From the NCBI GenBank assembly GCA_934141555.1, contig CAKPCK010000001.1, forward strand, positions 3,163-67,162: a stretch of DNA of 64,000 nucleotides. The letters are read 5' to 3'. The notes under the pieces are model-generated. The model made no database searches and was not told the DNA's origin. It was given only the letters and a program-made list of their open reading frames with translations. Positions 1,263-60,474 of this stretch are shown here, in pieces. The translations under genes and the position numbers were made by a program. How positions within the stretch are numbered: the first letter of the stretch is position 1; each line of letters begins with the position of its first letter. This stretch comes from an uncultured Clostridia bacterium (GTDB taxonomy: Bacteria > Bacillota > Clostridia > TANB77 > CAG-508).

Positions 1263-4200
1263 ATGGGGTTAAGATTAATATATGGAAGAGCTGGAACAGG
1301 AAAAAGTGAAAAATGTTATAAAGAAATATCAGAAAAAATAAAACAAAACAACAAAATATTAATAATAACACCAGAGCAATTTTCATTTACAGCAGAAAAA
1401 AAGCTAATGGAAGCAATAGAAACAGAAGCAGTATTCAATGCAGAAGTTGTAACATTTAGCAGAATGGCATATAGAGTAATACAAGAAATAGGAGGAAGAA
1501 CAGAAACAAATTTAAGCAAATGTGGAAAAGCAATGTTAATATACTCAATATTAAACAATTGTAAAAAAGACCTAAAATTTCTTGGAAAAACAGACGAAAA
1601 TGTTGACATGGCAGGAACAGCAATAACAGAATTCAAAAAACACGGAATAAGTGTAGAACAATTAAAGCAAGAAACAGAAAAACAAAGTGATATATACTTA
1701 AAAAATAAATTAAACGATATAAATATGATATATGAAAAATTCCAAGAACAAATTGCTGGAAAATATATAGATGAAACAGACTTATTAACAATATTAGCAC
1801 AAAATGTGGATAAAGTACCTGATTTTAAGGATAATTTGATATATATAGATGAATTTGCAGGATTTACAAGTCAAGAATATGATATTATTCAAAAACTTGT
1901 AAAAATTGCAAAACAAGTAACAATAACAATATGTACAGACACAATACATGAAATAAAAAATGTAGATACAGACATATTTTATTCAAATCAAATAACAATA
2001 AATAAATTATTACAATTAGCATCAGAAAATGATATTAAAATAGAAGAAGTAGAATTAGAGCAAACATATAAATTTAAAACACCAGAATTAAAGCACTTAG
2101 AGAAAAATTTATATAATTCAAAAATAGACTATTTTGAACAAATTCCACAAAATATAAAAATATTTCTTGCTAAAAATCAATATTCAGAAATAGAAGAAGT
2201 GGCAAAAAAAATATATAAATTAGTAAGAGATGAAAACTACAGATATAGAGATATAGCAGTAATTACGAAAAATATAGACATATATTCAAGTTTAGCAAGA
2301 GCAATATTTGACAAATATAACATACCAATATTTATAGATGAAAATAGAGACTTGAGTCAAAACATTTTAGTACAATATGTACTCTCAATATTAGAAATAT
2401 TTACAAAAAATTGGACAGAAGAAGCAGTACTAAATTATATAAAAATAGGATTTTCAGAAATAGATGAAGATGATTTATTTAGATTAGAAAAATATTGTTT
2501 AAAATGGGGAATTAAACAAAACAAGTGGAAAAAAGAATTTACATATGGTAATTACGAAGAAAAAGATAAAGAAGAAATAGCAAGATTAGAAGAAATAAGA
2601 AAACAAATAATAGAACCATTAATAAGCTTAAAAAATAAATTAGACGAAAATAAAACAGCAGAAGGAATATCAAGGACAATATATAATTTTCTAATAGAGC
2701 AAAATATAGCAGAAAAAATAAAACAAAAACAAGAAAAATTAGAAGAGCAAGGATTAATAGATTTATCAAATGAATATCAAAACAGTATACAAACAATTAT
2801 AGATATATTAGATGAAATAGTCCTTGTTTTTAAAGATGACAAAATAACATTAGACAAATATGCTCAAATTTTAAAAGTAGGATTTAAAAATAGTAGTTTA
2901 ACAAAAATACCAGGGACACAAGACCAAGTGATGATGGGAGATATAGACAGATCAAGAAGTCATAAAGTAAAAGCAATATTTATAATAGGATTAAATGATG
3001 GAGTATTTCCAAGTGTAAGAAAAGATGAAGGATTTTTGAATGATGCTGATAGAGAGATTTTAAAACAAGATGGAATAGAACTTGCAAAAGGAACAATAGA
3101 CAAATTATATGAAGATAATTTCAATATATATAAAGCATTTACAACAGCAGAAGAAAGATTGTATTTATCATATCCATCATCAGATATGCAGGGAAAAGCA
3201 TTAAGACCATCAATGTTAATAAATAAAATCAAAAAAATCTATAAAAATATAGAAGAACAAAGTGATGTAATAGAAGAAAAATCAGAAATATTAAATCAAA
3301 ATACAACATTTGAACAATTAATAAAAAATATTAATAAATTAAAAGACACAGAAATTGAAAAAATGTGGTATTATGTATATGACTATTATAAAAAAGACGA
3401 AAATTGGAACAATAAATTACAACAAAGCTTAAAAGGATTAGACTATTCAAATTTACCAGAAAAAATAAAACAAGAAAATATAGATAAACTATATGGAAAT
3501 AAATTAACAACAAGTATATCAAAACTAGAACAATATAGAAGATGTCCATTCTCATATTTTTTACAATATGGGCTAAAAATAAAACCACAAGAAGAATTAA
3601 AAGTACAAAGTTTCGACACAGGAACATTTATGCATGAGACAATTGATGAATTTTTCTCAATTGTAAAAGAAAATGGATATCAATTATCAGAACTAACAGA
3701 AGAACAAATATCAGAAATAATAGACAAAATAATTGATGAAAAACTTTTACAAAATAAAAATTATATATTTACATCAACAGCAAAATATAGAGCATTAGTT
3801 GTAAGATTAAAAAGATTAGTAAAAAAAGCACTAAAATATATAGTGGAAACATTAACATTAAGTGAATTTAATGTATTTGGAACAGAAATAGAATTCGATG
3901 AAAAAGGAAAATATAAACCAATTAGAATAACATTAGATAATGGAAAAAATGTTGAAATAATAGGAAAAATAGACAGAATAGATACAGCACAAAATGAAGA
4001 TGGAAAATATTTAAGAATAATTGACTATAAATCATCAATAAAAAACATAGACTTAAATGAAGTATATGCAGGATTACAAATACAATTATTAACATATTTA
4101 GATGCAGCATGTAAAGAAGAAGATTTATTACCAGCAGGAATTTTATATTTCAATTTAATAGAGCAAATGGTAAAAACAGAAAAAAATATCGGAATTGAGA

Positions 4201-4619
4201 AAATAGAAGAACAAATAAGAAAAGGTTTTAAAATGAAAGGACTAATATTAGCAGATGTAAAAGTAGTAAAATTACATGATAAAAATCTAGATAGTGGATA
4301 TTCAAATTTAGTTCCAGCATATATTTCAAAGAAAACTGGAGATATAAGTGAAGGAAATTCTAGTTGTGTAAGTAAAGAAGAATTTAAAGATTTACAAGAT
4401 TATATGTATAAAGTAATAAAACAAATTTCAAATGAAATCTTAAGTGGAAAAATAGATTTAAAACCATTTTATAAAAATAAAAAAACACCATGTAGTTATT
4501 GTGATTATAGAAGTATATGTAATTTCAATAATGGAGCTTGTCAAAATAAATATAATTTCATTGATGAAAAGAGTAAAAAAGAGATATTAGAAAAAATAAA
4601 ACAGGAAAAGTCTAATTAG
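1263..4619 (+). CDS. addB: ATP-dependent helicase/deoxyribonuclease subunit B (AddB/RexB).
   Basis: N-terminal Walker A GRAGTGKS. C-terminal nuclease/Fe-S region with CPFSYF and CSYCDYRSIC cysteines. The 1118-aa length is typical. Confidence 0.9.
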   Translation: MGLRLIYGRAGTGKSEKCYKEISEKIKQNNKILIITPEQFSFTAEKKLMEAIETEAVFNAEVVTFSRMAYRVIQEIGGRTETNLSKCGKAMLIYSILNNCKKDLKFLGKTDENVDMAGTAITEFKKHGISVEQLKQETEKQSDIYLKNKLNDINMIYEKFQEQIAGKYIDETDLLTILAQNVDKVPDFKDNLIYIDEFAGFTSQEYDIIQKLVKIAKQVTITICTDTIHEIKNVDTDIFYSNQITINKLLQLASENDIKIEEVELEQTYKFKTPELKHLEKNLYNSKIDYFEQIPQNIKIFLAKNQYSEIEEVAKKIYKLVRDENYRYRDIAVITKNIDIYSSLARAIFDKYNIPIFIDENRDLSQNILVQYVLSILEIFTKNWTEEAVLNYIKIGFSEIDEDDLFRLEKYCLKWGIKQNKWKKEFTYGNYEEKDKEEIARLEEIRKQIIEPLISLKNKLDENKTAEGISRTIYNFLIEQNIAEKIKQKQEKLEEQGLIDLSNEYQNSIQTIIDILDEIVLVFKDDKITLDKYAQILKVGFKNSSLTKIPGTQDQVMMGDIDRSRSHKVKAIFIIGLNDGVFPSVRKDEGFLNDADREILKQDGIELAKGTIDKLYEDNFNIYKAFTTAEERLYLSYPSSDMQGKALRPSMLINKIKKIYKNIEEQSDVIEEKSEILNQNTTFEQLIKNINKLKDTEIEKMWYYVYDYYKKDENWNNKLQQSLKGLDYSNLPEKIKQENIDKLYGNKLTTSISKLEQYRRCPFSYFLQYGLKIKPQEELKVQSFDTGTFMHETIDEFFSIVKENGYQLSELTEEQISEIIDKIIDEKLLQNKNYIFTSTAKYRALVVRLKRLVKKALKYIVETLTLSEFNVFGTEIEFDEKGKYKPIRITLDNGKNVEIIGKIDRIDTAQNEDGKYLRIIDYKSSIKNIDLNEVYAGLQIQLLTYLDAACKEEDLLPAGILYFNLIEQMVKTEKNIGIEKIEEQIRKGFKMKGLILADVKVVKLHDKNLDSGYSNLVPAYISKKTGDISEGNSSCVSKEEFKDLQDYMYKVIKQISNEILSGKIDLKPFYKNKKTPCSYCDYRSICNFNNGACQNKYNFIDEKSKKEILEKIKQEKSN

Positions 4620-4711
4620 CTTAGAATAAGAAAAGGCTTGGCTTATAAGGTGTAAGAAAGAAATGACAGAAGCCAAAAAAAGTTAAGTTTCAGGAAAGGA
4701 ATATCAAAATA

Positions 4712-32017: not shown

Positions 32018-33865
32018 ATGGAAGATGAAAAAATAGAAAGAATATTAAAACTAGTTGATATGCTTGAAATAAATGAAGAAAATAAAGATGATATAGCTAA
32101 AATAAAAAAATTAATAGAACAAAAAAAATATTCTGAAATGTTGGAAGTATTGAAAAAAGTTACGAGTAAAAGTGGAACAAAAGTAAAAGAAGAGGATGAT
32201 ACAATAGTATTAAAAAGAAAAGATGAGCAAACTCCAAAAGAAGAAAAAGTAGAATTAAATCAAGATGAACAAACAGAAGAAGAAAAAGAAAAAGCTAAAT
32301 TAGAAAAAATGATGGAAAAAATCGAACAAGAAAAAGAAGAAGAAGACTATGAATATCCAGCCAAACTATCAAATAGAGCACTTGAAGAAAATTATATAAG
32401 TTTATTACTTGCTAATCCTAAAGCAATAGCAATGTATTATATAGAAAAGAAAGATTGTTATTTTGAAAGTGCATTATTGTTAAATATATATAAAAGTATA
32501 TTATTTACAGAAGGAGAGGCATATGCACCACAAATAGCCAAAAATGATTTTAACTATGCAAAGGAAAATTATAAAATATTTCAAAGCAAAAAAAGATTAT
32601 TAGAAAAGGGAAAAGAGAGTAAAAAGAATTTCGAAAAAATATATGTAGAATTAAGAAAATTATTTGAAATAAGAAAAGGATATACAACTAGTCCGATAAA
32701 AGAAACTCAAAAACAAATTGAAGAAATAATTGATTATGAATTGTATGACAGAATGACAATCCAAGAGGTAAAAGACGCAATAGTTCAAATAACAACAACA
32801 GAAAAATTTAAAAGATCAGTTTTAAGTAATAATATGACAGATTTCTTATTATCAGGTGAGAATAATTTAAATTCAGGTTTAAGTTTACCATTTCCAATAT
32901 TAAGTAGTGTTTTTAAAGGAATAAGAAAAGGAGAAACAATGTCATATGCTATGCCATCTAACTCAGGAAAAAGTAGATTTACAATTGATATTGCAGCATA
33001 TATAGCATATAAACATAAAAAGAAAGTATTAATAGTATCAAATGAGATGTCAGAAGAAAAGATGAAACTATGTTTAATAACAACAATTGTAAATAATAAA
33101 GAGATCCAAGAATTACATGGGCACAAATTAAGAATAACTGAAGGAGAGATATTAGAGTTTAAATATAAAGCTGATGAAAATTCTGGTGTGGATGTTGATG
33201 AAAATGGATATGTATTAAGAGCAGAAAATGAAAGTTTATCAGATTTTACGAAAAGATTATTAGAATGTTCTACACAGTTTAAAGAGGTAATTGAGGTTAC
33301 AAATTGGATTCAAACTCAAAAAGATAATCAAATATTTTTTGTTAATATTACAGACCACACGAATGATGAATTAGAAAAGATAATTTTAAATTATTATTAT
33401 AAAGAAAAAATTGAATATATGTTTTATGATACATTAAAACCAGATACAGAAAATATAGGAAATAGTGAAGAATTGAAAAAGACAGCGACAATATTATCGA
33501 ATCTTGCACAAAATTTAAATATATTTATAGGTTCTTCTTTACAATTAACAGAAAGTAACAAATCACCACTAAATCTTGATGTTAATGATTTAGCTGCTTG
33601 TAGAACAGTAAAAGAGGTGTTAGATACATTATGTTTAATAAAACAAATACATAATGATGATTTAAAATTATATGAATATTCTGCAGAAGAAGTTCCAACA
33701 GAAACATTTGAATTAGAGAGATCAAAAAATCCAGATGTAAGATATTATGCTTGTATAGTTGATAAAAATAGGGCAGGAGCAAAACCAAGAGTTTTATTTA
33801 AATTAAATCTTGCTTATAATGAATGGGAAGAACTTGGATATTTGAGATTAAAAATTGAAAATTAA
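32018..33865 (+). CDS. DnaB-family hexameric helicase homolog with a ~115-aa K/E-rich N-terminal extension.
   Basis: DnaB-N-like LEENYISLLLANPKAIAMYY..KDCYFES. Walker A AMPSNSGKSRFT, SNEMSEEKM, Walker B-like YMFYDTL, and C-terminal IVDKNRAGAKP. Confidence 0.65.
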   Translation: MEDEKIERILKLVDMLEINEENKDDIAKIKKLIEQKKYSEMLEVLKKVTSKSGTKVKEEDDTIVLKRKDEQTPKEEKVELNQDEQTEEEKEKAKLEKMMEKIEQEKEEEDYEYPAKLSNRALEENYISLLLANPKAIAMYYIEKKDCYFESALLLNIYKSILFTEGEAYAPQIAKNDFNYAKENYKIFQSKKRLLEKGKESKKNFEKIYVELRKLFEIRKGYTTSPIKETQKQIEEIIDYELYDRMTIQEVKDAIVQITTTEKFKRSVLSNNMTDFLLSGENNLNSGLSLPFPILSSVFKGIRKGETMSYAMPSNSGKSRFTIDIAAYIAYKHKKKVLIVSNEMSEEKMKLCLITTIVNNKEIQELHGHKLRITEGEILEFKYKADENSGVDVDENGYVLRAENESLSDFTKRLLECSTQFKEVIEVTNWIQTQKDNQIFFVNITDHTNDELEKIILNYYYKEKIEYMFYDTLKPDTENIGNSEELKKTATILSNLAQNLNIFIGSSLQLTESNKSPLNLDVNDLAACRTVKEVLDTLCLIKQIHNDDLKLYEYSAEEVPTETFELERSKNPDVRYYACIVDKNRAGAKPRVLFKLNLAYNEWEELGYLRLKIEN

Positions 33866-33972: not shown

Positions 33973-34248
33973 TTGAAAGAAACAATAATTGATGAACGTG
34001 CAATACAATTTGCACATTATATAATAGATTCAAAAGATACTGTTAGAGGAACTGCAAAAAAGTTTGGAATAAGTAAAAGTACAGTACATAAAGATGTGAC
34101 AGAAAGACTTGTGAAAATAAATCCAGCATTAGCCAAAGAGGTTAGAAAAATATTAGACGAAAATAAGGCTGAAAGACATATAAGAGGAGGATTAGCGACA
34201 AAGGCAAAATATGAAAGAAGTCATTGCATAACTATTGACAATAATTAA
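33973..34248 (+). CDS. spoIIID: Stage III sporulation transcriptional regulator SpoIIID.
   Basis: RGTAKKFGISKSTVHKDVTERL HTH and KAERHIRGGLATK. TTG start after GGGGGTG. Confidence 0.9.
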   Translation: MKETIIDERAIQFAHYIIDSKDTVRGTAKKFGISKSTVHKDVTERLVKINPALAKEVRKILDENKAERHIRGGLATKAKYERSHCITIDNN

Positions 34249-34332: not shown

Positions 34333-35172
34333 ATGAATTTAAGATTAGAAGATGAAAGTGAAAAAAATAAAAAAATGAAGTTTGTATATATTAGTATAAT
34401 AGCTATTTGTGTGATAGCAGTTATAACAGCTGTAGTAATACAAATTGTTAAGAATTTACCGGAAAAAGAGCCAGAGATTGATACAAGTATATTACAAAAA
34501 TATAAAGCAGATTTTGACAAAATTTTTACTAATAAAGTAAATTATTTGAAAAATAATGAATATAAAATTGATAGAATAGATGATTCAGAAGCAATTGTTT
34601 ATACAGGGTATAGTAATAAAGATATAAAAGTAAGTGATTACAATTTAGATGTAAATATACCATATATTAATATAAAAAATACTACAATAGAAAGATTTAA
34701 TAAAAGTATAAAAGATACATTTGAGCAAAAAGCAAAAGATATATTAAGTACTCAAAGGCAAAATATTATTTATACAGTTAATTATAGTGCATATGTTACA
34801 AATAATATGTTGTCAATTGTAGTTAGATCTTCACTAAAAGAAGGTGAAAATCCAGAAAAAGTTATGGTAAAAACCTATAATTATGATCTAACAGAAAAAA
34901 AGGAACTTTCTTTTGAAGATTTCTTGAATTTTAAAGGAATATCAAGACAAGATGCAGGAAATACAATAAGAAAAGAGATAAAGAGTATAGAAAATAAAAT
35001 AAATGAACTTTCTAAAGCAGGATACAAAGTTTATTCAAGAGATTCAAATAGTGATATATATAAATTAGATAATATTACAGAATATTTTATTGGTGAAGAT
35101 AATGTTTTATATGTTATTTTTGCATATGGAAATCAAAGTAATACAAGTGAAATTGATATTATAGTAATGTAA
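34333..35172 (+). CDS. Membrane-anchored hypothetical protein, DUF4163/DUF3298 (RsiV-like) pattern.
   Basis: One TM (FVYISIIAICVIAVITAVVIQIV). The extracytoplasmic domain has PYINIKN...FNKSI and YNYDL...ELSFEDF patterns. The start is uncertain (34333 or 34375). Confidence 0.45.
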   Translation: MNLRLEDESEKNKKMKFVYISIIAICVIAVITAVVIQIVKNLPEKEPEIDTSILQKYKADFDKIFTNKVNYLKNNEYKIDRIDDSEAIVYTGYSNKDIKVSDYNLDVNIPYINIKNTTIERFNKSIKDTFEQKAKDILSTQRQNIIYTVNYSAYVTNNMLSIVVRSSLKEGENPEKVMVKTYNYDLTEKKELSFEDFLNFKGISRQDAGNTIRKEIKSIENKINELSKAGYKVYSRDSNSDIYKLDNITEYFIGEDNVLYVIFAYGNQSNTSEIDIIVM

Positions 35173-35200
35173 GTAGATGTTTTTTCACATCTACTTTTTT
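35173..35200 (+). terminator. Rho-independent terminator.
   Basis: gtagatgt / acatctac stem followed by a T6 run. Confidence 0.85.
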
Positions 35201-35255
35201 ATTATAGAAAAGTTATTATTGGGAATTAAAATAGGAAACAATAGATTAAAAAAAA

Positions 35256-35284
35256 TTGACAAATTATGTAAAGTATAGTATAAT
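35256..35284 (+). promoter_or_regulatory. Consensus sigmaA promoter of the GC-rich orphan gene.
   Basis: TTGACA, 17-nt spacer, TATAAT; both hexamers are exact consensus. Confidence 0.7.
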
Positions 35285-35295
35285 TAAATTATCGA

Positions 35296-35312
35296 ATGAG
35301 GAAAGCCCTCAT
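35296..35312 (+). promoter_or_regulatory. Hairpin near the 5' end of the leader.
   Basis: atgagg-aaagc-cctcat, starting about 5 nt after the predicted transcription start. Confidence 0.5.
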
Positions 35313-35353
35313 ATAGTTCTTTGAGTAATCAGAGTAAAGGAGTGTGCAAAATA

Positions 35354-35686
35354 ATGTTCCAATTAAAGTTGGATCAAAAGATGACCAAGCTTCCCAAGGA
35401 AGTTTGCGAGGAACTCAATGGCATTCTCGCGGTGGAAGTGCCTGATTATGACTTTTTGTTTGATCAGGTGTCTAGGCTCGCAGATGCCCTTACCACTAAT
35501 CGGAAGGTCAAAAGCCTTTTCGTGGTCAAAGGGGAGTTCTCTGCTGATGGTGAGCCGTCGGCAAAACGCGAACAGCAGGAGAAGTGGCGGCATTTTGTTG
35601 ACCGCGATATCCTGTGGACTCTGTTCACGGGGAATGGCCGTGGCGATTATATCGTCTATATGGACATCCCCAAAGCAGCTGCCTAA
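35354..35686 (+). CDS. Orphan hypothetical protein (110 aa) in a high-GC island.
   Basis: ATG at 35354 lies 11 nt after AAAGGAG; the track's TTG at 35321 has no SD. Sampled 60-nt lines count 45% and 58% GC. All six frames are open here because stop codons are scarce. No motif recognised. Confidence 0.6.
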   Translation: MFQLKLDQKMTKLPKEVCEELNGILAVEVPDYDFLFDQVSRLADALTTNRKVKSLFVVKGEFSADGEPSAKREQQEKWRHFVDRDILWTLFTGNGRGDYIVYMDIPKAAA

Positions 35687-35734
35687 TCTTTGATTATGGC
35701 TAAGAAGTCGGTGGACAAATGTCTTCACCAAAGT

Positions 35735-35772
35735 GGTATGTGGATGTCAAAACATCTTACATGCCATTTTTT
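35735..35772 (+). terminator. Rho-independent terminator of the GC-rich orphan gene.
   Basis: ggtatgtggatgt / acatcttacatgcc imperfect stem (one bulge plus wobbles) followed by a T7 run. Confidence 0.65.
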
Positions 35773-35796
35773 TGTATATAATTATAGTATGTATTT

Positions 35797-35828
35797 ATAA
35801 AAATAGACCTAAGTTTTTACTTAGGTCT
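35797..35828 (-). terminator. Rho-independent terminator downstream of htrA.
   Basis: agacctaag / cttaggtct 9-bp stem with a T run on the minus strand. Confidence 0.7.
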
Positions 35829-35956
35829 TTCGAAAATAAAAGGGGATGTTTGTTGTAATCAGTTTTGTTTACTGACTATGTTTATAATATACCAATTAAT
35901 TTTGTTCATTGTGTGAATTAAAAGTGAAAAATTAACAATAAATTATTAATTTTATA

Positions 35957-55437: not shown

Positions 55438-55483
55438 AAAATGAACTATTAAGTAAATAAATTACTTAATAGTTCGTTTTTTT
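55436..55483. terminator. Bidirectional terminator between the M23 peptidase gene and glmS.
   Basis: gaactattaagtaa / ttacttaatagttc perfect 14-bp stem, flanked by A5 and T7 runs. Confidence 0.9.
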
Positions 55484-57323
55484 ATTCGACTGTTACGGAT
55501 TTAGCAAGATTTCTTGGTTTATCAACATCTAATCCTTTTTCTTTAGAAATATAATAAGAAAGTAATTGTAAAGGAACAATTGCAACAATAGGTGAAAGAA
55601 GAATATTAGTATCTGGAATTTTAATAATTGTATCTATATTATTACTTGGCAATTCTTGATTTGTAATAACTAATGTTTTAGCACCACGAGTAATAACTTC
55701 TTGAATATTACTAATAGTTTTTTCAACTAAATTTTTATCTGTAATAATACTTATGACAGATATGCCATTTTCAATTAATGCAATAGGTCCATGTTTTAAT
55801 TCGCCAGCAGCATATGCTTCTGAATGTATATAAGAAATTTCTTTTAATTTTAAAGAAGCTTCAAGAGCAGTATTGTAATCAATACCTCTACCTAAGAAGA
55901 AAACATCTTTTTCTTGATAAATATTTTTTGCATAGTTTTTAATTTTTTCAGAAGATTTTAATGCTTCATCAATTTTATCTGGAAGATTAAAAATATCTTT
56001 TTTCAATTTTGCTAATTCTGAAGATGGAGTAGTTCCTAATATTTCAGCAAAATAAATTGCAAGAATTATAAGTAGCATAACTTGAGATGTATAGGCTTTT
56101 GTTGAAGCAACAGCAATTTCAGGGCCAGCATGTGTATAAATAGAGTAGTCAGCTTCTCTTGTAATAGAACTACCAATAACATTTGATACAGCAAGTGTTG
56201 TTGCTCCTTTTGATTTTGCAAGTTTTAATGCTGCAATAGTATCTGCTGTTTCACCAGATTGAGAGATGTAAATACATAAAGTATTTTTATCAATAATAGG
56301 ATTTCTATATCTAAATTCTGAAGCTATATCAACAGTAACTGGAATATTACATAAATTTTCAATTGCAATTTTTCCAGAAAGCCCAGCATGCATTGCAGTC
56401 CCACAAGCAACTATATATATTTTGTTTATTTTTGATAAAAATCCTTTTGTGAATTTTAAATCATCAAAATTACAAGGTTCATTTTCAGGTAAACGTGAAC
56501 CAATAGTTTCTCTTATTGCTGTTGGTTGTTCAAATATTTCTTTTAACATATAATCTTCAAAACCATTTTTATCTGCAGCACTAGCATTCCATTCTATACT
56601 TGTTAATTTTTTGTCTATTTTATTTAAATCAATATCAAAAAATTCAACATTGTCTCTTGAAATAAGAGCAAATTCATTATCATTTAAAAGATAAAAATCT
56701 TTTGTGAATGATAAAATTGCAGGAATATCTGAAGAAATATAATTTTCTCCATCACCTTTTCCTATAACAAGAGGGCTATCTTTTCTAATAACAATCATAT
56801 TGTCTGGCATATATTTTGAAATAACTTCAAGAGAGTAGCTTCCTTTAAATGATTTGCAAGCTTTTTGTACTGCACGTAAAACTTTTTTATTATCATTTTT
56901 TTTATCTTTTGAATAATAATAATGTATAAGATTTGGTATAATTTCTGTATCTGTTTGAGAATGAAATGTATAACCATTATCTAATAATAATTTTTTTAAA
57001 TCATTATAATTTTCAATAATTCCATTGTGAACAACAGCAAAACTATTACTATTATCTAAATGAGGATGTGCATTTTCTTTTGAAGGTTTTCCATGTGTTG
57101 CCCATCTTGTATGAGCAATTCCGACTGTTCCTTCAAGAGAATTTATTCCATCTAAATTATATAAGTTTCTAACTCTTCCTTTATCTTTCATAACTGAAAG
57201 ACCATTTTTTTCTATAGTTGATATTCCTGCAGAGTCATAACCTCTGTATTCAAGTCTTAAAAGACCATTAATTAAAATAGGACTAGCTTTTTGATGTCCT
57301 ATATATCCAATAATTCCACACAT
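55482..57323 (-). CDS. glmS: Glutamine--fructose-6-phosphate aminotransferase.
   Basis: MCGIIGY N-terminal nucleophile, two SIS domains, and the C-terminal DKPRNLAKSVTVE. Confidence 0.97.
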   Translation of the reverse strand: MCGIIGYIGHQKASPILINGLLRLEYRGYDSAGISTIEKNGLSVMKDKGRVRNLYNLDGINSLEGTVGIAHTRWATHGKPSKENAHPHLDNSNSFAVVHNGIIENYNDLKKLLLDNGYTFHSQTDTEIIPNLIHYYYSKDKKNDNKKVLRAVQKACKSFKGSYSLEVISKYMPDNMIVIRKDSPLVIGKGDGENYISSDIPAILSFTKDFYLLNDNEFALISRDNVEFFDIDLNKIDKKLTSIEWNASAADKNGFEDYMLKEIFEQPTAIRETIGSRLPENEPCNFDDLKFTKGFLSKINKIYIVACGTAMHAGLSGKIAIENLCNIPVTVDIASEFRYRNPIIDKNTLCIYISQSGETADTIAALKLAKSKGATTLAVSNVIGSSITREADYSIYTHAGPEIAVASTKAYTSQVMLLIILAIYFAEILGTTPSSELAKLKKDIFNLPDKIDEALKSSEKIKNYAKNIYQEKDVFFLGRGIDYNTALEASLKLKEISYIHSEAYAAGELKHGPIALIENGISVISIITDKNLVEKTISNIQEVITRGAKTLVITNQELPSNNIDTIIKIPDTNILLSPIVAIVPLQLLSYYISKEKGLDVDKPRNLAKSVTVE

Positions 57324-57349: not shown

Positions 57350-57535
57350 ATAGGGGCTATTAAAGTCAAAAGTCCCTTATATGCGGAATTGAAATATACT
57401 TATGTATTAATTTCTGTTACAACATTACATTGTTTTTTGTTATAATACTTTGGCTTAAGCTAAGCCACTAGAGCATCCGCCGAAAATTCGATAAACTCTA
57501 GACCTCGTCAACACATTTGTGCTCTGGCGCTTAAT
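57350..57535 (-). ncRNA. glmS: glmS ribozyme (GlcN6P-dependent self-cleaving riboswitch).
   Basis: The minus strand reads AGCGCCAGAGC...TTGACGAGG...GTTTATCGAATTTTCGGCGGATGC, matching the conserved core. It lies in the glmS 5' leader. Confidence 0.85.
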
Positions 57536-57630
57536 AAATAACTCCTTTCTTAATTTATTTTTTAATATTTCAATTTCTGTATTATATTATAATATATTAA
57601 ATATTTGTGCAAGTCTTTTGTTTAAAATAT

Positions 57631-57730: not shown

Positions 57731-58921
57731 TTAATCAAGATAGTCAGAATTAAAGTCAATGTTAAATGGAGAATTTTTAGTAAAAGATGAATCAATCATA
57801 TTCCAAATATCACATACCAAATAAGTTGTAGGCGAGTCAAGTGTCCCATACTGTACCCAAACTAATTCAGTGGGTGGAATTTTGGAATGATAAAAACTAG
57901 TAGAATGCTTACGTCCCCATTTTGCACGAACTTTCTTTTTTGGTGGATAATGTTGTGAGCCAGTTCCATAAGGTATTGCTAAAATATCATCCAAACCATT
58001 GTCGACAATCTGGTAATAGAGTGCTTGAGCATATTGAGAAGATTCAATTGGTTTAGAACCAATTTCATGAGTTACTTCTTTAAATGCTTTTTCTAAAAGC
58101 TCACTCTGTTTTTCACTTGAAGTTTTTTTGAACAATGGGAAAGCGATAATTGCTTTTCTCCATACTGCTGAAATAATTTGATAAGAATTAGCAGTATGGT
58201 AAGAGTGTGGATAACAAATATGCAATACATTCAGGAAGTTTCCATTTAGTACATGAAAACCAGTAACATAAAGCTGAAGCTTATCGATAATATCCAAAAA
58301 ATTGGAAGTCATCTTATCATAGTAGTTATTTGCAATTTTGAGAACAGAGCCCTCAAAAAAGAAACTTATTGGTTCATTAGAAGAGTCCCAAAGAAATGGA
58401 AATGTAGATTTTAAAACAGAAACAACCTGCAGTTTTCTGAAAATTGCAGTAGAATTAAGAATATTTTTTTCCGATTCAGTAAGAACATTTTTGTCAAATT
58501 CGTAAGAATCAGTTGTTATAACTTTAACATTATTTCCGTTAATGGAAATATTAAAAGTAATGATAATCTTACAAAAAGTAGAAAATTTTCGAATAGAATC
58601 AGGAATGCGATAACCATGATTTAACTTATGCCAAATATTAAAACTATATGATTTTGTATTAGAATTGTATACAATTTCATCAGAAACGAACCAAGAATTA
58701 CATTCACAATATTTCCGAAGAAAACTTTTCAGATGATAGGCGAAAATAGCACCATAAACTTCTTTACGAATATTCGAATTCGACTTGATTTGACTGTCAA
58801 TTTTATTGATATGTGCTCTAATAAGTGGACAATCATAAAAATCAATATTATGAGATTGAATTAAAGAATTCAAAGGGTTACCAGTAATAGAAATTTCTAA
58901 ATTCTGATTGAAGTTTTTCAT
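57731..58921 (-). CDS. Uncharacterised protein, paralog 1 (396 aa, AT-rich copy).
   Basis: The MKNFNQ start at 58921 lies 8 nt after AGGAGG. About 50% identical by eye to the 59185-60474 product, sharing blocks NIDFYDC, DSYEFDK, NGNFLN, ANSYQIISAVWRKAI, SSEKQ.ELLEKAF, YAQA.YYQIVDN, ELVWVQYG and TTYLV. Confidence 0.75.
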   Translation of the reverse strand: MKNFNQNLEISITGNPLNSLIQSHNIDFYDCPLIRAHINKIDSQIKSNSNIRKEVYGAIFAYHLKSFLRKYCECNSWFVSDEIVYNSNTKSYSFNIWHKLNHGYRIPDSIRKFSTFCKIIITFNISINGNNVKVITTDSYEFDKNVLTESEKNILNSTAIFRKLQVVSVLKSTFPFLWDSSNEPISFFFEGSVLKIANNYYDKMTSNFLDIIDKLQLYVTGFHVLNGNFLNVLHICYPHSYHTANSYQIISAVWRKAIIAFPLFKKTSSEKQSELLEKAFKEVTHEIGSKPIESSQYAQALYYQIVDNGLDDILAIPYGTGSQHYPPKKKVRAKWGRKHSTSFYHSKIPPTELVWVQYGTLDSPTTYLVCDIWNMIDSSFTKNSPFNIDFNSDYLD

Positions 58922-58935
58922 AAACATATCCTCCT

Positions 58936-59184: not shown

Positions 59185-60474
59185 TTACTCGAAATCATCA
59201 CCACCATCGGTGTCATCATCGTCAGCGTTGGTATCATCCAGCGAAGAGTAAATGTTTACCGAAACGATGTTGAATGCGGAATTGGGGGTGAAAGTTTCGG
59301 CAATCATATGCCAAAGTTCACCCACCAAATAGGTGGTGCGGTTTTCCTGAGAGCCATACTGGACCCACACCAGTTCAGAAGGGGCCATCTTGGAATGATC
59401 AAACTGCTCAAATTCCTCATCGGAGGTAAGCAGAGTTGCCTTTGCGTTGATGTTGTCTTCACGACCCCATCTTGCACAAACCTTCTTCTTTGCAGGGAAG
59501 GGAAGTGCGCCAGCCCCACGAGGAACTGCCAAAAGGTTATCCAGATTGTTGTCAACAATCTGGTAATAAATGGCCTGAGCATATGCCAAAGCATTAAGCT
59601 GCTTAGAGCCAATTTCCTTCTTTACCTCGGAAAAGGCCTTCTCCAGAAGCTCTGCCTGCTTTTCGCTGGAAAGCTTCTTGAACATGGGGAAGACAACGAT
59701 AGCCTTCCGCCATACTGCAGAAATGATCTGGTAGCTGTTTGCTGAGTAGTAACTCCGCGGATAGCAGAAGTTCAGGGCATTCAGAAAGTTGCCGTTGGCC
59801 AACTTGAAGTTTGCCAGATAGTCCTTCACCTCGCTGATGGCAGCCTGGAAGCTGTTGAGCATCTTACCATAATAGGTGTTAGATACTCGAAGAACATTTC
59901 CTTCGAAAACGAAGTTTTTCTGTACCATTTCGGTAACAGGTTCTTTGTCAATACCATAGTGAACTTCGCCAAAGATAAGCGAAGTATTAGGAACAGGTAC
60001 TACAGAAATGTTTTTGAGAGTGACACCAGAAATCATGGTCTTTTTGTCAAACTCATAAGAGTCAGCAGTTACAACCTTAACGGCCTGGCCTGTAAAGGCT
60101 ACGGTGACATTGATGATGAATTTGACAAATGTTTTGGTTTTGAACCCCAAGTGATCGATGCTGTATCCAGAGCTGATCTTGTTCGCGAGGTCGAAACTGT
60201 ACGTTCCGGCACTACGATTGTAGGTCATTTTATTGGATACAGTCCAATTGCCGTTGGCACAATGCCGACGGAAAATCGAAACGAGCTGTGCTGCAAAAAC
60301 AGCACCATAAACCTCATTACGAGTTTTGGCACTTGCGGAAATCTTCTCATTGATTTTGGCGATATGTGCTCTTACCAGAGCACAATCATAAAAGTCGATG
60401 TTGTGAGCCTGCTTGAGTGCATCCATAGTGCCTTCTGCGATGCGGACTTCAAAATTCTGATTAAAGCTTTTCAT
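59185..60474 (-). CDS. Uncharacterised protein, paralog 2 (429 aa, GC-rich copy with a polyacidic C-terminal tail).
   Basis: ATG lies 8 nt after GGAGGA. Sampled 60-nt lines count 45%, 52% and 58% GC. Antisense and off-frame ORFs stay open because stops are scarce. The tail reads DDTNADDDDTDGGDDFE. Confidence 0.75.
   Translation of the reverse strand: MKSFNQNFEVRIAEGTMDALKQAHNIDFYDCALVRAHIAKINEKISASAKTRNEVYGAVFAAQLVSIFRRHCANGNWTVSNKMTYNRSAGTYSFDLANKISSGYSIDHLGFKTKTFVKFIINVTVAFTGQAVKVVTADSYEFDKKTMISGVTLKNISVVPVPNTSLIFGEVHYGIDKEPVTEMVQKNFVFEGNVLRVSNTYYGKMLNSFQAAISEVKDYLANFKLANGNFLNALNFCYPRSYYSANSYQIISAVWRKAIVVFPMFKKLSSEKQAELLEKAFSEVKKEIGSKQLNALAYAQAIYYQIVDNNLDNLLAVPRGAGALPFPAKKKVCARWGREDNINAKATLLTSDEEFEQFDHSKMAPSELVWVQYGSQENRTTYLVGELWHMIAETFTPNSAFNIVSVNIYSSLDDTNADDDDTDGGDDFE

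Follow-up and report, generated by a model that had tools for sequence, protein, structure and literature searches.

The window, by which we mean the whole 64,000-nucleotide (64-kb) stretch of DNA analysed here, carries a GC-rich insert of about 570-590 nt at roughly 35203-35790 on the forward strand of an AT-rich gut Clostridia chromosome. The best explanation, which we regard as probable, is that the insert is a horizontally acquired, self-contained cassette with a real protein product, a costly accessory gene whose benefit depends on conditions. The parts of the cassette and the native elements at its borders are as follows.

35171..35196 (+), intrinsic terminator of a native 279-aa gene (34333-35172), 10-bp stem followed by a T-run; left boundary
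35203..35790 (+), inserted segment, placed from the syntenic site of relatives without it; ends approximate, flanks AT-rich
35256..35284 (+), promoter TTGACA-17 nt-TATAAT of the sigma-70/SigA type, score 12/12; inferred start at ~35291
35296..35312 (+), 5'-proximal stem-loop AUGAGG-AAAGC-CCUCAU, 6-bp stem and 5-nt loop
35336..35342 (+), Shine-Dalgarno sequence AAAGGAG, 11 nt from GGAG to ATG, by direct reading
35354..35686 (+), coding sequence of a 110-aa acidic, soluble protein (ORF110) with an ATG start, pI 5.4, 12.7 kDa
35408..35426 (+), polymorphic patch covering codons 19-25, including G35408T
35710..35729 (+), small hairpin in the 3'UTR, predicted fold
35730..35773 (+), intrinsic terminator of the cassette with an A-tract, a stem of ~17 bp including G-U pairs and a T7 run
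35805..35828 (-), terminator of a conserved sRNA-like gene downstream of htrA, its stem covarying among nine relatives; right boundary

Insertion site, composition and expression signals

The cassette differs sharply in composition from its surroundings: counted in windows of 200 nt, GC content was 0.43-0.52 across 35300-35799 versus 0.18-0.30 in the flanks. By part, GC content was 49.2% for the ORF, 36.5% for the 5'UTR, 36.8% for the 3'UTR plus terminator and 14% for the promoter. The initial annotation had set a GC-rich ORF against a genome of ~28-30% GC and had described high GC extending into the 3'UTR and terminator behind an AT-rich promoter; the contrast and its extent both stand, but the background is slightly lower, 26.6% for the window overall. 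The codon usage is equally foreign. The GC content at third codon positions (GC3) is 0.58 in ORF110 versus 0.08-0.12 in native genes, and among ~6,900 native codons we found AGA in 193 of 209 arginine positions and not a single CGG or CTG. ORF110 contains two CGG, two CGC, two CTG and three CTC codons, all of which the host essentially never uses. Translation of such a rare-codon ORF would probably be inefficient and its expression costly, and the codons CGG, CTG, CTC and CGC themselves may add to that cost.

Using the neighbouring 279-aa protein, we retrieved ten related genomes (47-77% identity), and the GC-rich segment follows the 279-aa gene in 0 of the 10. The relatives have a terminator hairpin at the same place as that at 35171-35196, and the syntenic site is empty in nine related genomes. 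In three of them (L006, L007 and L008) the sRNA terminator comes only 10-30 nt after that of the 279-aa gene, and in another (L003) an unrelated spacer of 150 nt separates the two. As the relatives are without the GC-rich segment and the two terminators are nearly adjacent there, we regard the cassette as an insertion of ~590 nt. The site comparison, proposed as a check by the initial annotation, thus found the cassette missing in relatives, and the earlier description of an autonomous single-gene cassette of foreign composition between native terminators is borne out by the GC profile, the signals and the flanking terminators. As far as sequence can tell, the foreign composition and the lineage-specific occurrence show that the cassette was acquired horizontally.

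Neither terminal inverted repeats nor a target-site duplication that would mark a transposon were evident, and the only matches were short, AT-rich and probably due to chance. A 15-nt imperfect inverted repeat (87% complementary; 35275-35289 and 35776-35790) brackets the transcription unit and is likewise probably a chance feature of AT-rich DNA. The cassette has chromosomal housekeeping genes for neighbours (dprA, a dnaB-like gene, spoIIID, htrA and rnhB), and no toxin gene, defence context, mobile element or immunity-gene cluster was visible next to it. The DnaB-like helicase ORF (615 aa, 32018-33865) has a long Lys/Glu-rich N-terminal extension and aligns with no more than the first third of the DnaB_C model; the SpoIIID homologue is next to it at 33973-34248. 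The conserved sRNA-like gene at 35797-35925 (-), just downstream of htrA, has an extended -10 element (TGnTATATT), an upstream palindrome GTTCAcAAAATGAAC, a 5' hairpin AGUCAGU/ACUGAUU and the terminator stem with covariation in nine related genomes. A single-stranded stretch of this gene, AACAAACAUCCCCUUUUAUUUUC, does not vary, is rich in C and looks like a putative anti-Shine-Dalgarno seed; the gene belongs to no Rfam family.

The two native terminators are convergent and the cassette between them has a complete set of signals of its own. Its promoter is the only perfect TTGACA-17-TATAAT in the 64 kb, where nine matches with at most one mismatch were observed and 2.8 +/- 1.6 were expected from shuffles. 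The 5' hairpin (-7.3 kcal/mol, z -3.7) begins ~5 nt past the inferred start, and the terminator hairpin at 35730-35766 has a folding energy of about -20 kcal/mol (z -4.8 to -5.1). The exact consensus promoter, the 6-bp hairpin a few nucleotides after the start and the cassette's own terminator had all been read from the letters in the initial annotation, and our scores and folds agree with each. In the predicted leader fold, GGAG pairs weakly with the start-codon region (35338-35360, GGAGUGU/AUGUUCC), a pairing that could damp the initiation of translation.

Taken in order, these elements suggest a simple route to expression. The housekeeping sigma factor would start transcription from ~35291 at a consensus promoter of maximal strength, the 5'-terminal stem-loop is proposed to stabilise the mRNA, plausibly by protection from decay, the Shine-Dalgarno site would direct translation of ORF110, and the strong terminator would end transcription ahead of the convergent sRNA/htrA unit. 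To judge from this anatomy, the design is one of constitutive and very high expression that operates without a regulator.

Coding evidence and rarity of the protein

Shuffling of the region yields an open stretch as long as ORF110 in 1.1% of cases, and ORF length by itself is weak evidence of coding; the coding call stands on other lines. The GC content of the three codon positions is 0.58/0.32/0.58 (chi-square P value 8e-5). A homologue, P0007, a 97-aa protein from a pig-gut contig, has 41% identity to the product of ORF110 (E 1e-8 for the whole library). Among intact alleles of the cassette, 6 synonymous and 6 nonsynonymous sites are segregating over 71 and 259 available sites, respectively, giving a pN/pS of ~0.27. 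Because codon-position periodicity, homology at the protein level and an excess of synonymous change, all three expected of a protein-coding gene, were found together, the ORF is taken to code for a protein that is putatively translated, or at least selected as a protein.

The two proteins have a conserved C-terminal motif in common, LW.LFT..RGDYIVY.D.P, or with its alternatives LW(T/S)LFT..(G/K)RGDYIVY(M/V)D(I/F)P, and the nucleotide similarity between their loci is confined to the coding sequence. The P0007 gene is likewise a stand-alone ORF of 45% GC within flanks of 29% GC and has a terminator of its own. The initial annotation had seen neither a transmembrane segment nor a recognisable motif in ORF110, and this is upheld. 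Pfam, PHROGs, PADLOC and NCBIfam gave no match to either family member, a sequence-profile search of PDB found nothing below E 0.17, and the AlphaFold2 (AF2) model, built on a three-sequence alignment, is of low confidence (alpha/beta, pLDDT 56) and gave no fold match in a Foldseek search against PDB, the best E value of 0.8 being meaningless. The product of ORF110 is shown to be a real soluble, acidic protein of a tiny orphan family, and its alpha/beta class comes from the low-confidence model.

The family is exceedingly rare. An exhaustive HMMER search of 1.84 billion representatives recovered the protein's own cluster and P0007 only, and a word-indexed protein search, with the single sequence and with a profile, found the same two and nothing else; the family thus consists of two protein clusters among ~15 billion proteins. 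Pattern-seeded tblastn searches of GTDB representative genomes, IMG/VR and JGI metagenomes and a direct tblastn of phage and plasmid records, all of them independent of gene calling, found no relatives. An exact 33-mer search gave no match either and is a weak test, its query starting at the polymorphic site 35420. On a 16.8-kb contig from an independent assembly (L024), the gene caller skipped the 110-aa ORF of the cassette at 3841-4624; its calls came from contigs of less than 1 kb. Because the gene is left uncalled on a long contig, protein databases are likely to under-sample the family, and small genes of foreign composition in AT-rich gut genomes are probably under-counted in protein databases more widely.

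Allelic variation and competing explanations

The cassette was present on 18 metagenome contigs from several studies, and the junction is the same wherever a contig extends that far. Each of the two junctions recurs in independent assemblies that come from different studies and were made with different assemblers, and L024 is 100% identical to the window over the cassette and both flanks. We aligned the 18 contigs to the window, keeping in mind that the counts are small and that the contigs may be non-independent. A premature stop at codon 19 (G35408T together with 35410 G>A, turning GAG into TAA) was found in 12 of them. Variable sites are concentrated in two places, eight in the 29-nt promoter and eight in codons 19-25; the 69-nt 5'UTR (35285-35353, covered by 14-18 contigs) and the final 124 nt of the coding sequence have none. 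As to the origin of the variable patch at 35408-35426, we considered a diversity-generating retroelement (DGR) and rejected it, since all four bases change and the changes are not adenine-specific; no repeat of the patch was found within 35100-35900.

The state of the promoter tends to follow that of the ORF. All four intact haplotypes (that of the window and L024, L001/2, L035/36 and L037) have both hexamers perfect, whereas of the four nonsense haplotypes three have mutated hexamers, with TTAACA and TGCAAT in L025/26 and a -10 of CATAAT in L027-30 and L034; at the level of haplotypes this association of an intact ORF with a perfect promoter (4/4 versus 1/4) is only suggestive. Judging by the haplotypes, the promoter hexamers were damaged at least twice on the nonsense background. 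The remaining nonsense haplotype, L038, keeps a perfect promoter, from which we infer that the nonsense mutation came first and the promoter damage later. Within the nonsense group, six variable sites fall in the 29-nt promoter versus two in the other 489 nt (Fisher P value 5e-7). Mutations would be distributed evenly under relaxed constraint alone, and the pattern points instead to selection to shut down transcription once the ORF was broken. It indicates that broken-ORF alleles would be under selection to switch transcription off and intact alleles under selection for a maximal promoter. The same population data suggest that the selected product is probably the protein, not just the RNA, and that it is costly to make. 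Through the order of events that they preserve, the metagenome alleles are direct evidence, at the population level, of selection against maximal transcription of a useless gene.

The cassette also occurs in more than one genetic background. On the two short contigs that make up the cross-species flank evidence (L026 and L032, the upstream junction lying outside them), the cassettes are ~99% identical to that of the window, and the downstream flanks are 99% identical to another species (L006) and 90-97% identical to the window. L035/36 has yet another variant of the sRNA terminator. These flanks are consistent with a recent spread between related gut species, which would have used homologous recombination within the conserved sequences on either side of the cassette, namely the sRNA and the 3' end of the 279-aa gene.

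The main rival to the accessory-gene reading is that the cassette is a recent passenger, a foreign gene that came with a strong promoter or captured one, is functionless in this host, with an effect between neutral and harmful, and is now being eliminated. We judge this unlikely but worth serious weight. An early stop in 12 of 18 contigs, most of those with damaged promoters too, is what such decay would produce, as are codons that the host never uses, absence from all related representative genomes and the failure to find a functional annotation of any kind. Against it stand four intact haplotypes with perfect hexamers, the invariant 5'UTR and C-terminal 124 nt and a pN/pS of ~0.27, and the presence of a ~99% identical cassette in at least two flank backgrounds suggests spread over mere decay. 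The existence of P0007 at 41% identity further argues that the protein has been maintained in the long term. We therefore favour the reading of an accessory gene, useful conditionally and costly otherwise, because intact alleles are under purifying selection, two-thirds of the contigs carry the stop and the promoters have been hit repeatedly.

A quite improbable alternative is that the GC island serves chiefly as a structured RNA, non-coding or dual-function, with an ORF that is incidental to it. Structured RNAs are a common finding at GC-rich islands of AT-rich genomes, three reading frames are open here, gene callers miss the ORF on long contigs, and the folds are stable: z is -6.0 for the full transcript, -3.5 for the coding sequence alone and -4.9 for the coding sequence of the homologue. 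However, the value for the coding sequence lies inside the tail of native genes (mean -1.1, SD 1.3; 4 of 34 native segments at or below -3), and most of the excess structure is therefore attributed to the terminal hairpins. Searches of Rfam at the gathering threshold and with E up to 10 gave nothing relevant, the best hit being MicX with 18 bits against a gathering score of 75, and a tmRNA/tRNA scan found only a tRNA-Thr elsewhere in the window. The periodicity of GC over codon positions, the conservation of the protein despite diverged nucleotides and the excess of synonymous change all speak for a protein, and a nonsense mutation followed by loss of the promoter is sensible only if translation mattered.

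The initial annotation had linked the cassette to a GC-rich gene in the 59-60 kb part of the window, as possible products of the same donor or members of one functional set. This gene and its neighbour are:

59185-60474 (-), 429-aa ORF with GC3 0.52
57731-58927 (-), 398-aa AT-richer neighbour with GC3 0.21

The two proteins belong to a near-orphan family of five clusters, which is arrayed in tandem between rpoB and glmS, with two or three copies in each strain (L013-L021). The paralogues of the arrays are 398-441 aa long, have GC3 of 0.19-0.52 versus ~0.1 in native genes and have AT-rich leaders and near-consensus promoters in common. Strains with 96% identity in rpoB have only 80% in the array, which makes the array a hypervariable locus. 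The family had no family match, a low-confidence AF2 model (pLDDT 54) without a match in Foldseek, and no member in any GTDB representative genome. A glmS ribozyme (Rfam RF00234, 78.7 bits) lies nearby at 57394-57542 (-), upstream of glmS (55482-57323), and is an ordinary feature.

That the cassette and the 429-aa paralogue came from one donor and work together has only a very slim chance of being right. In its favour, the GC3 of each gene (0.58 and 0.52) is non-native, each has a near-consensus promoter, either family is extremely rare and one sample (ERZ27287143) contains the two of them. The proposed comparison of codon usage lends no support beyond non-native composition and a roughly unbiased choice of codons: the likelihood of ORF110 is -1.61 bits per codon under the usage of the paralogue and -1.57 under uniform usage, and neither gene's usage beats uniform as a predictor of the other. 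A distance of 24 kb that includes housekeeping genes moreover separates the two loci, the 429-aa family has a history of its own as a hypervariable tandem array, and the cassette is also found beside the flank of a species whose representative genome is without the 429-aa family.

Finally, an assembly chimera or contamination, which the abrupt jump in composition and the shortness (less than 1 kb) of most contigs with a called gene might have suggested and which the initial annotation had listed as a way to overturn its proposal, is effectively refuted by the 18 contigs and by junctions repeated in independent assemblies, including one at 100% identity, and the short contigs are better explained by, and indeed expected from, one cassette sitting in diverged flanks within a sample.

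Proposed role and comparison with known systems

Our guess at the role of ORF110, which we offer as a doubtful one, is that of a stoichiometric binder or neutraliser made abundantly in advance, the best candidate being an orphan protein of the immunity type that would counter an interbacterial toxin or some other invading factor. This fits best because the protein is small, acidic and soluble, would always be abundant, is shared horizontally within its niche and is often discarded. If the product is protective, it would represent a new small family of defence or immunity proteins. More speculatively still, and with little expectation of being right, one may picture the 110-aa family as a new kind of portable, always-on protective factor, for example of immunity to a gut toxin or phage, that is spread among related AT-rich Clostridia through recombination in their conserved flanks and toggled off through nonsense and promoter mutations when there is no threat; the high GC content that persists in both of its distant hosts, as in the hypervariable 429-aa array, might then itself be selected and not inherited, for instance for a stable, nuclease-resistant mRNA.

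Orphan immunity genes include the colicin Im proteins, barstar-like inhibitors and the acquired interbacterial defence genes of gut Bacteroidales. ORF110 resembles their products in being ~100 aa long, acidic, predicted to be cytoplasmic and predicted to be constitutive, a likeness that is circumstantial, and resembles the genes in being fast-evolving, nearly an ORFan, variable between strains and horizontally shared within a niche. It differs in having no similarity in sequence or fold to immunity or antitoxin families (Pfam, PADLOC, NCBIfam, PDB profiles and Foldseek) and no toxin, mobile element or immunity cluster nearby. Anti-CRISPR and other anti-defence genes encode small, acidic ORFan proteins under very strong unregulated promoters that are costly in themselves. 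The cassette is similar in its small acidic ORFan protein and very strong promoter, but has no Aca-type repressor, mobile-element context or match to a known family. The leaders of E. coli ompA and of B. subtilis aprE and ermC are known for 5'-terminal stem-loops that stabilise the mRNA; the cassette likewise has a stable hairpin no more than ~5 nt from the 5' end predicted for its mRNA, which would be strongly expressed, although its stem has only 6 bp and the start is a predicted one.

The closest structural parallel concerns phage morons, independent promoter-gene-terminator units first described in HK97 and HK022 and defined by a promoter and a factor-independent terminator of their own, insertion between otherwise adjacent genes and deviant GC content (PMC3594210). 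The cassette agrees with these in having one ORF with its own promoter and its own factor-independent terminator, in sitting between genes that are adjacent in relatives and in having a GC content that differs from its neighbours and implies horizontal transfer. Unlike morons, it is located among chromosomal housekeeping genes and not in a prophage or phage, and ORF110 has no phage homologue in PHROGs, phage records or IMG/VR. It is thus moron-like and not a member of the moron class. The cassette is a horizontally acquired ORFan islet with an unusually informative allelic series, and it provides a clean natural example of a foreign gene wired for expression in an extremely AT-rich genome, within a transcriptionally safe gap.
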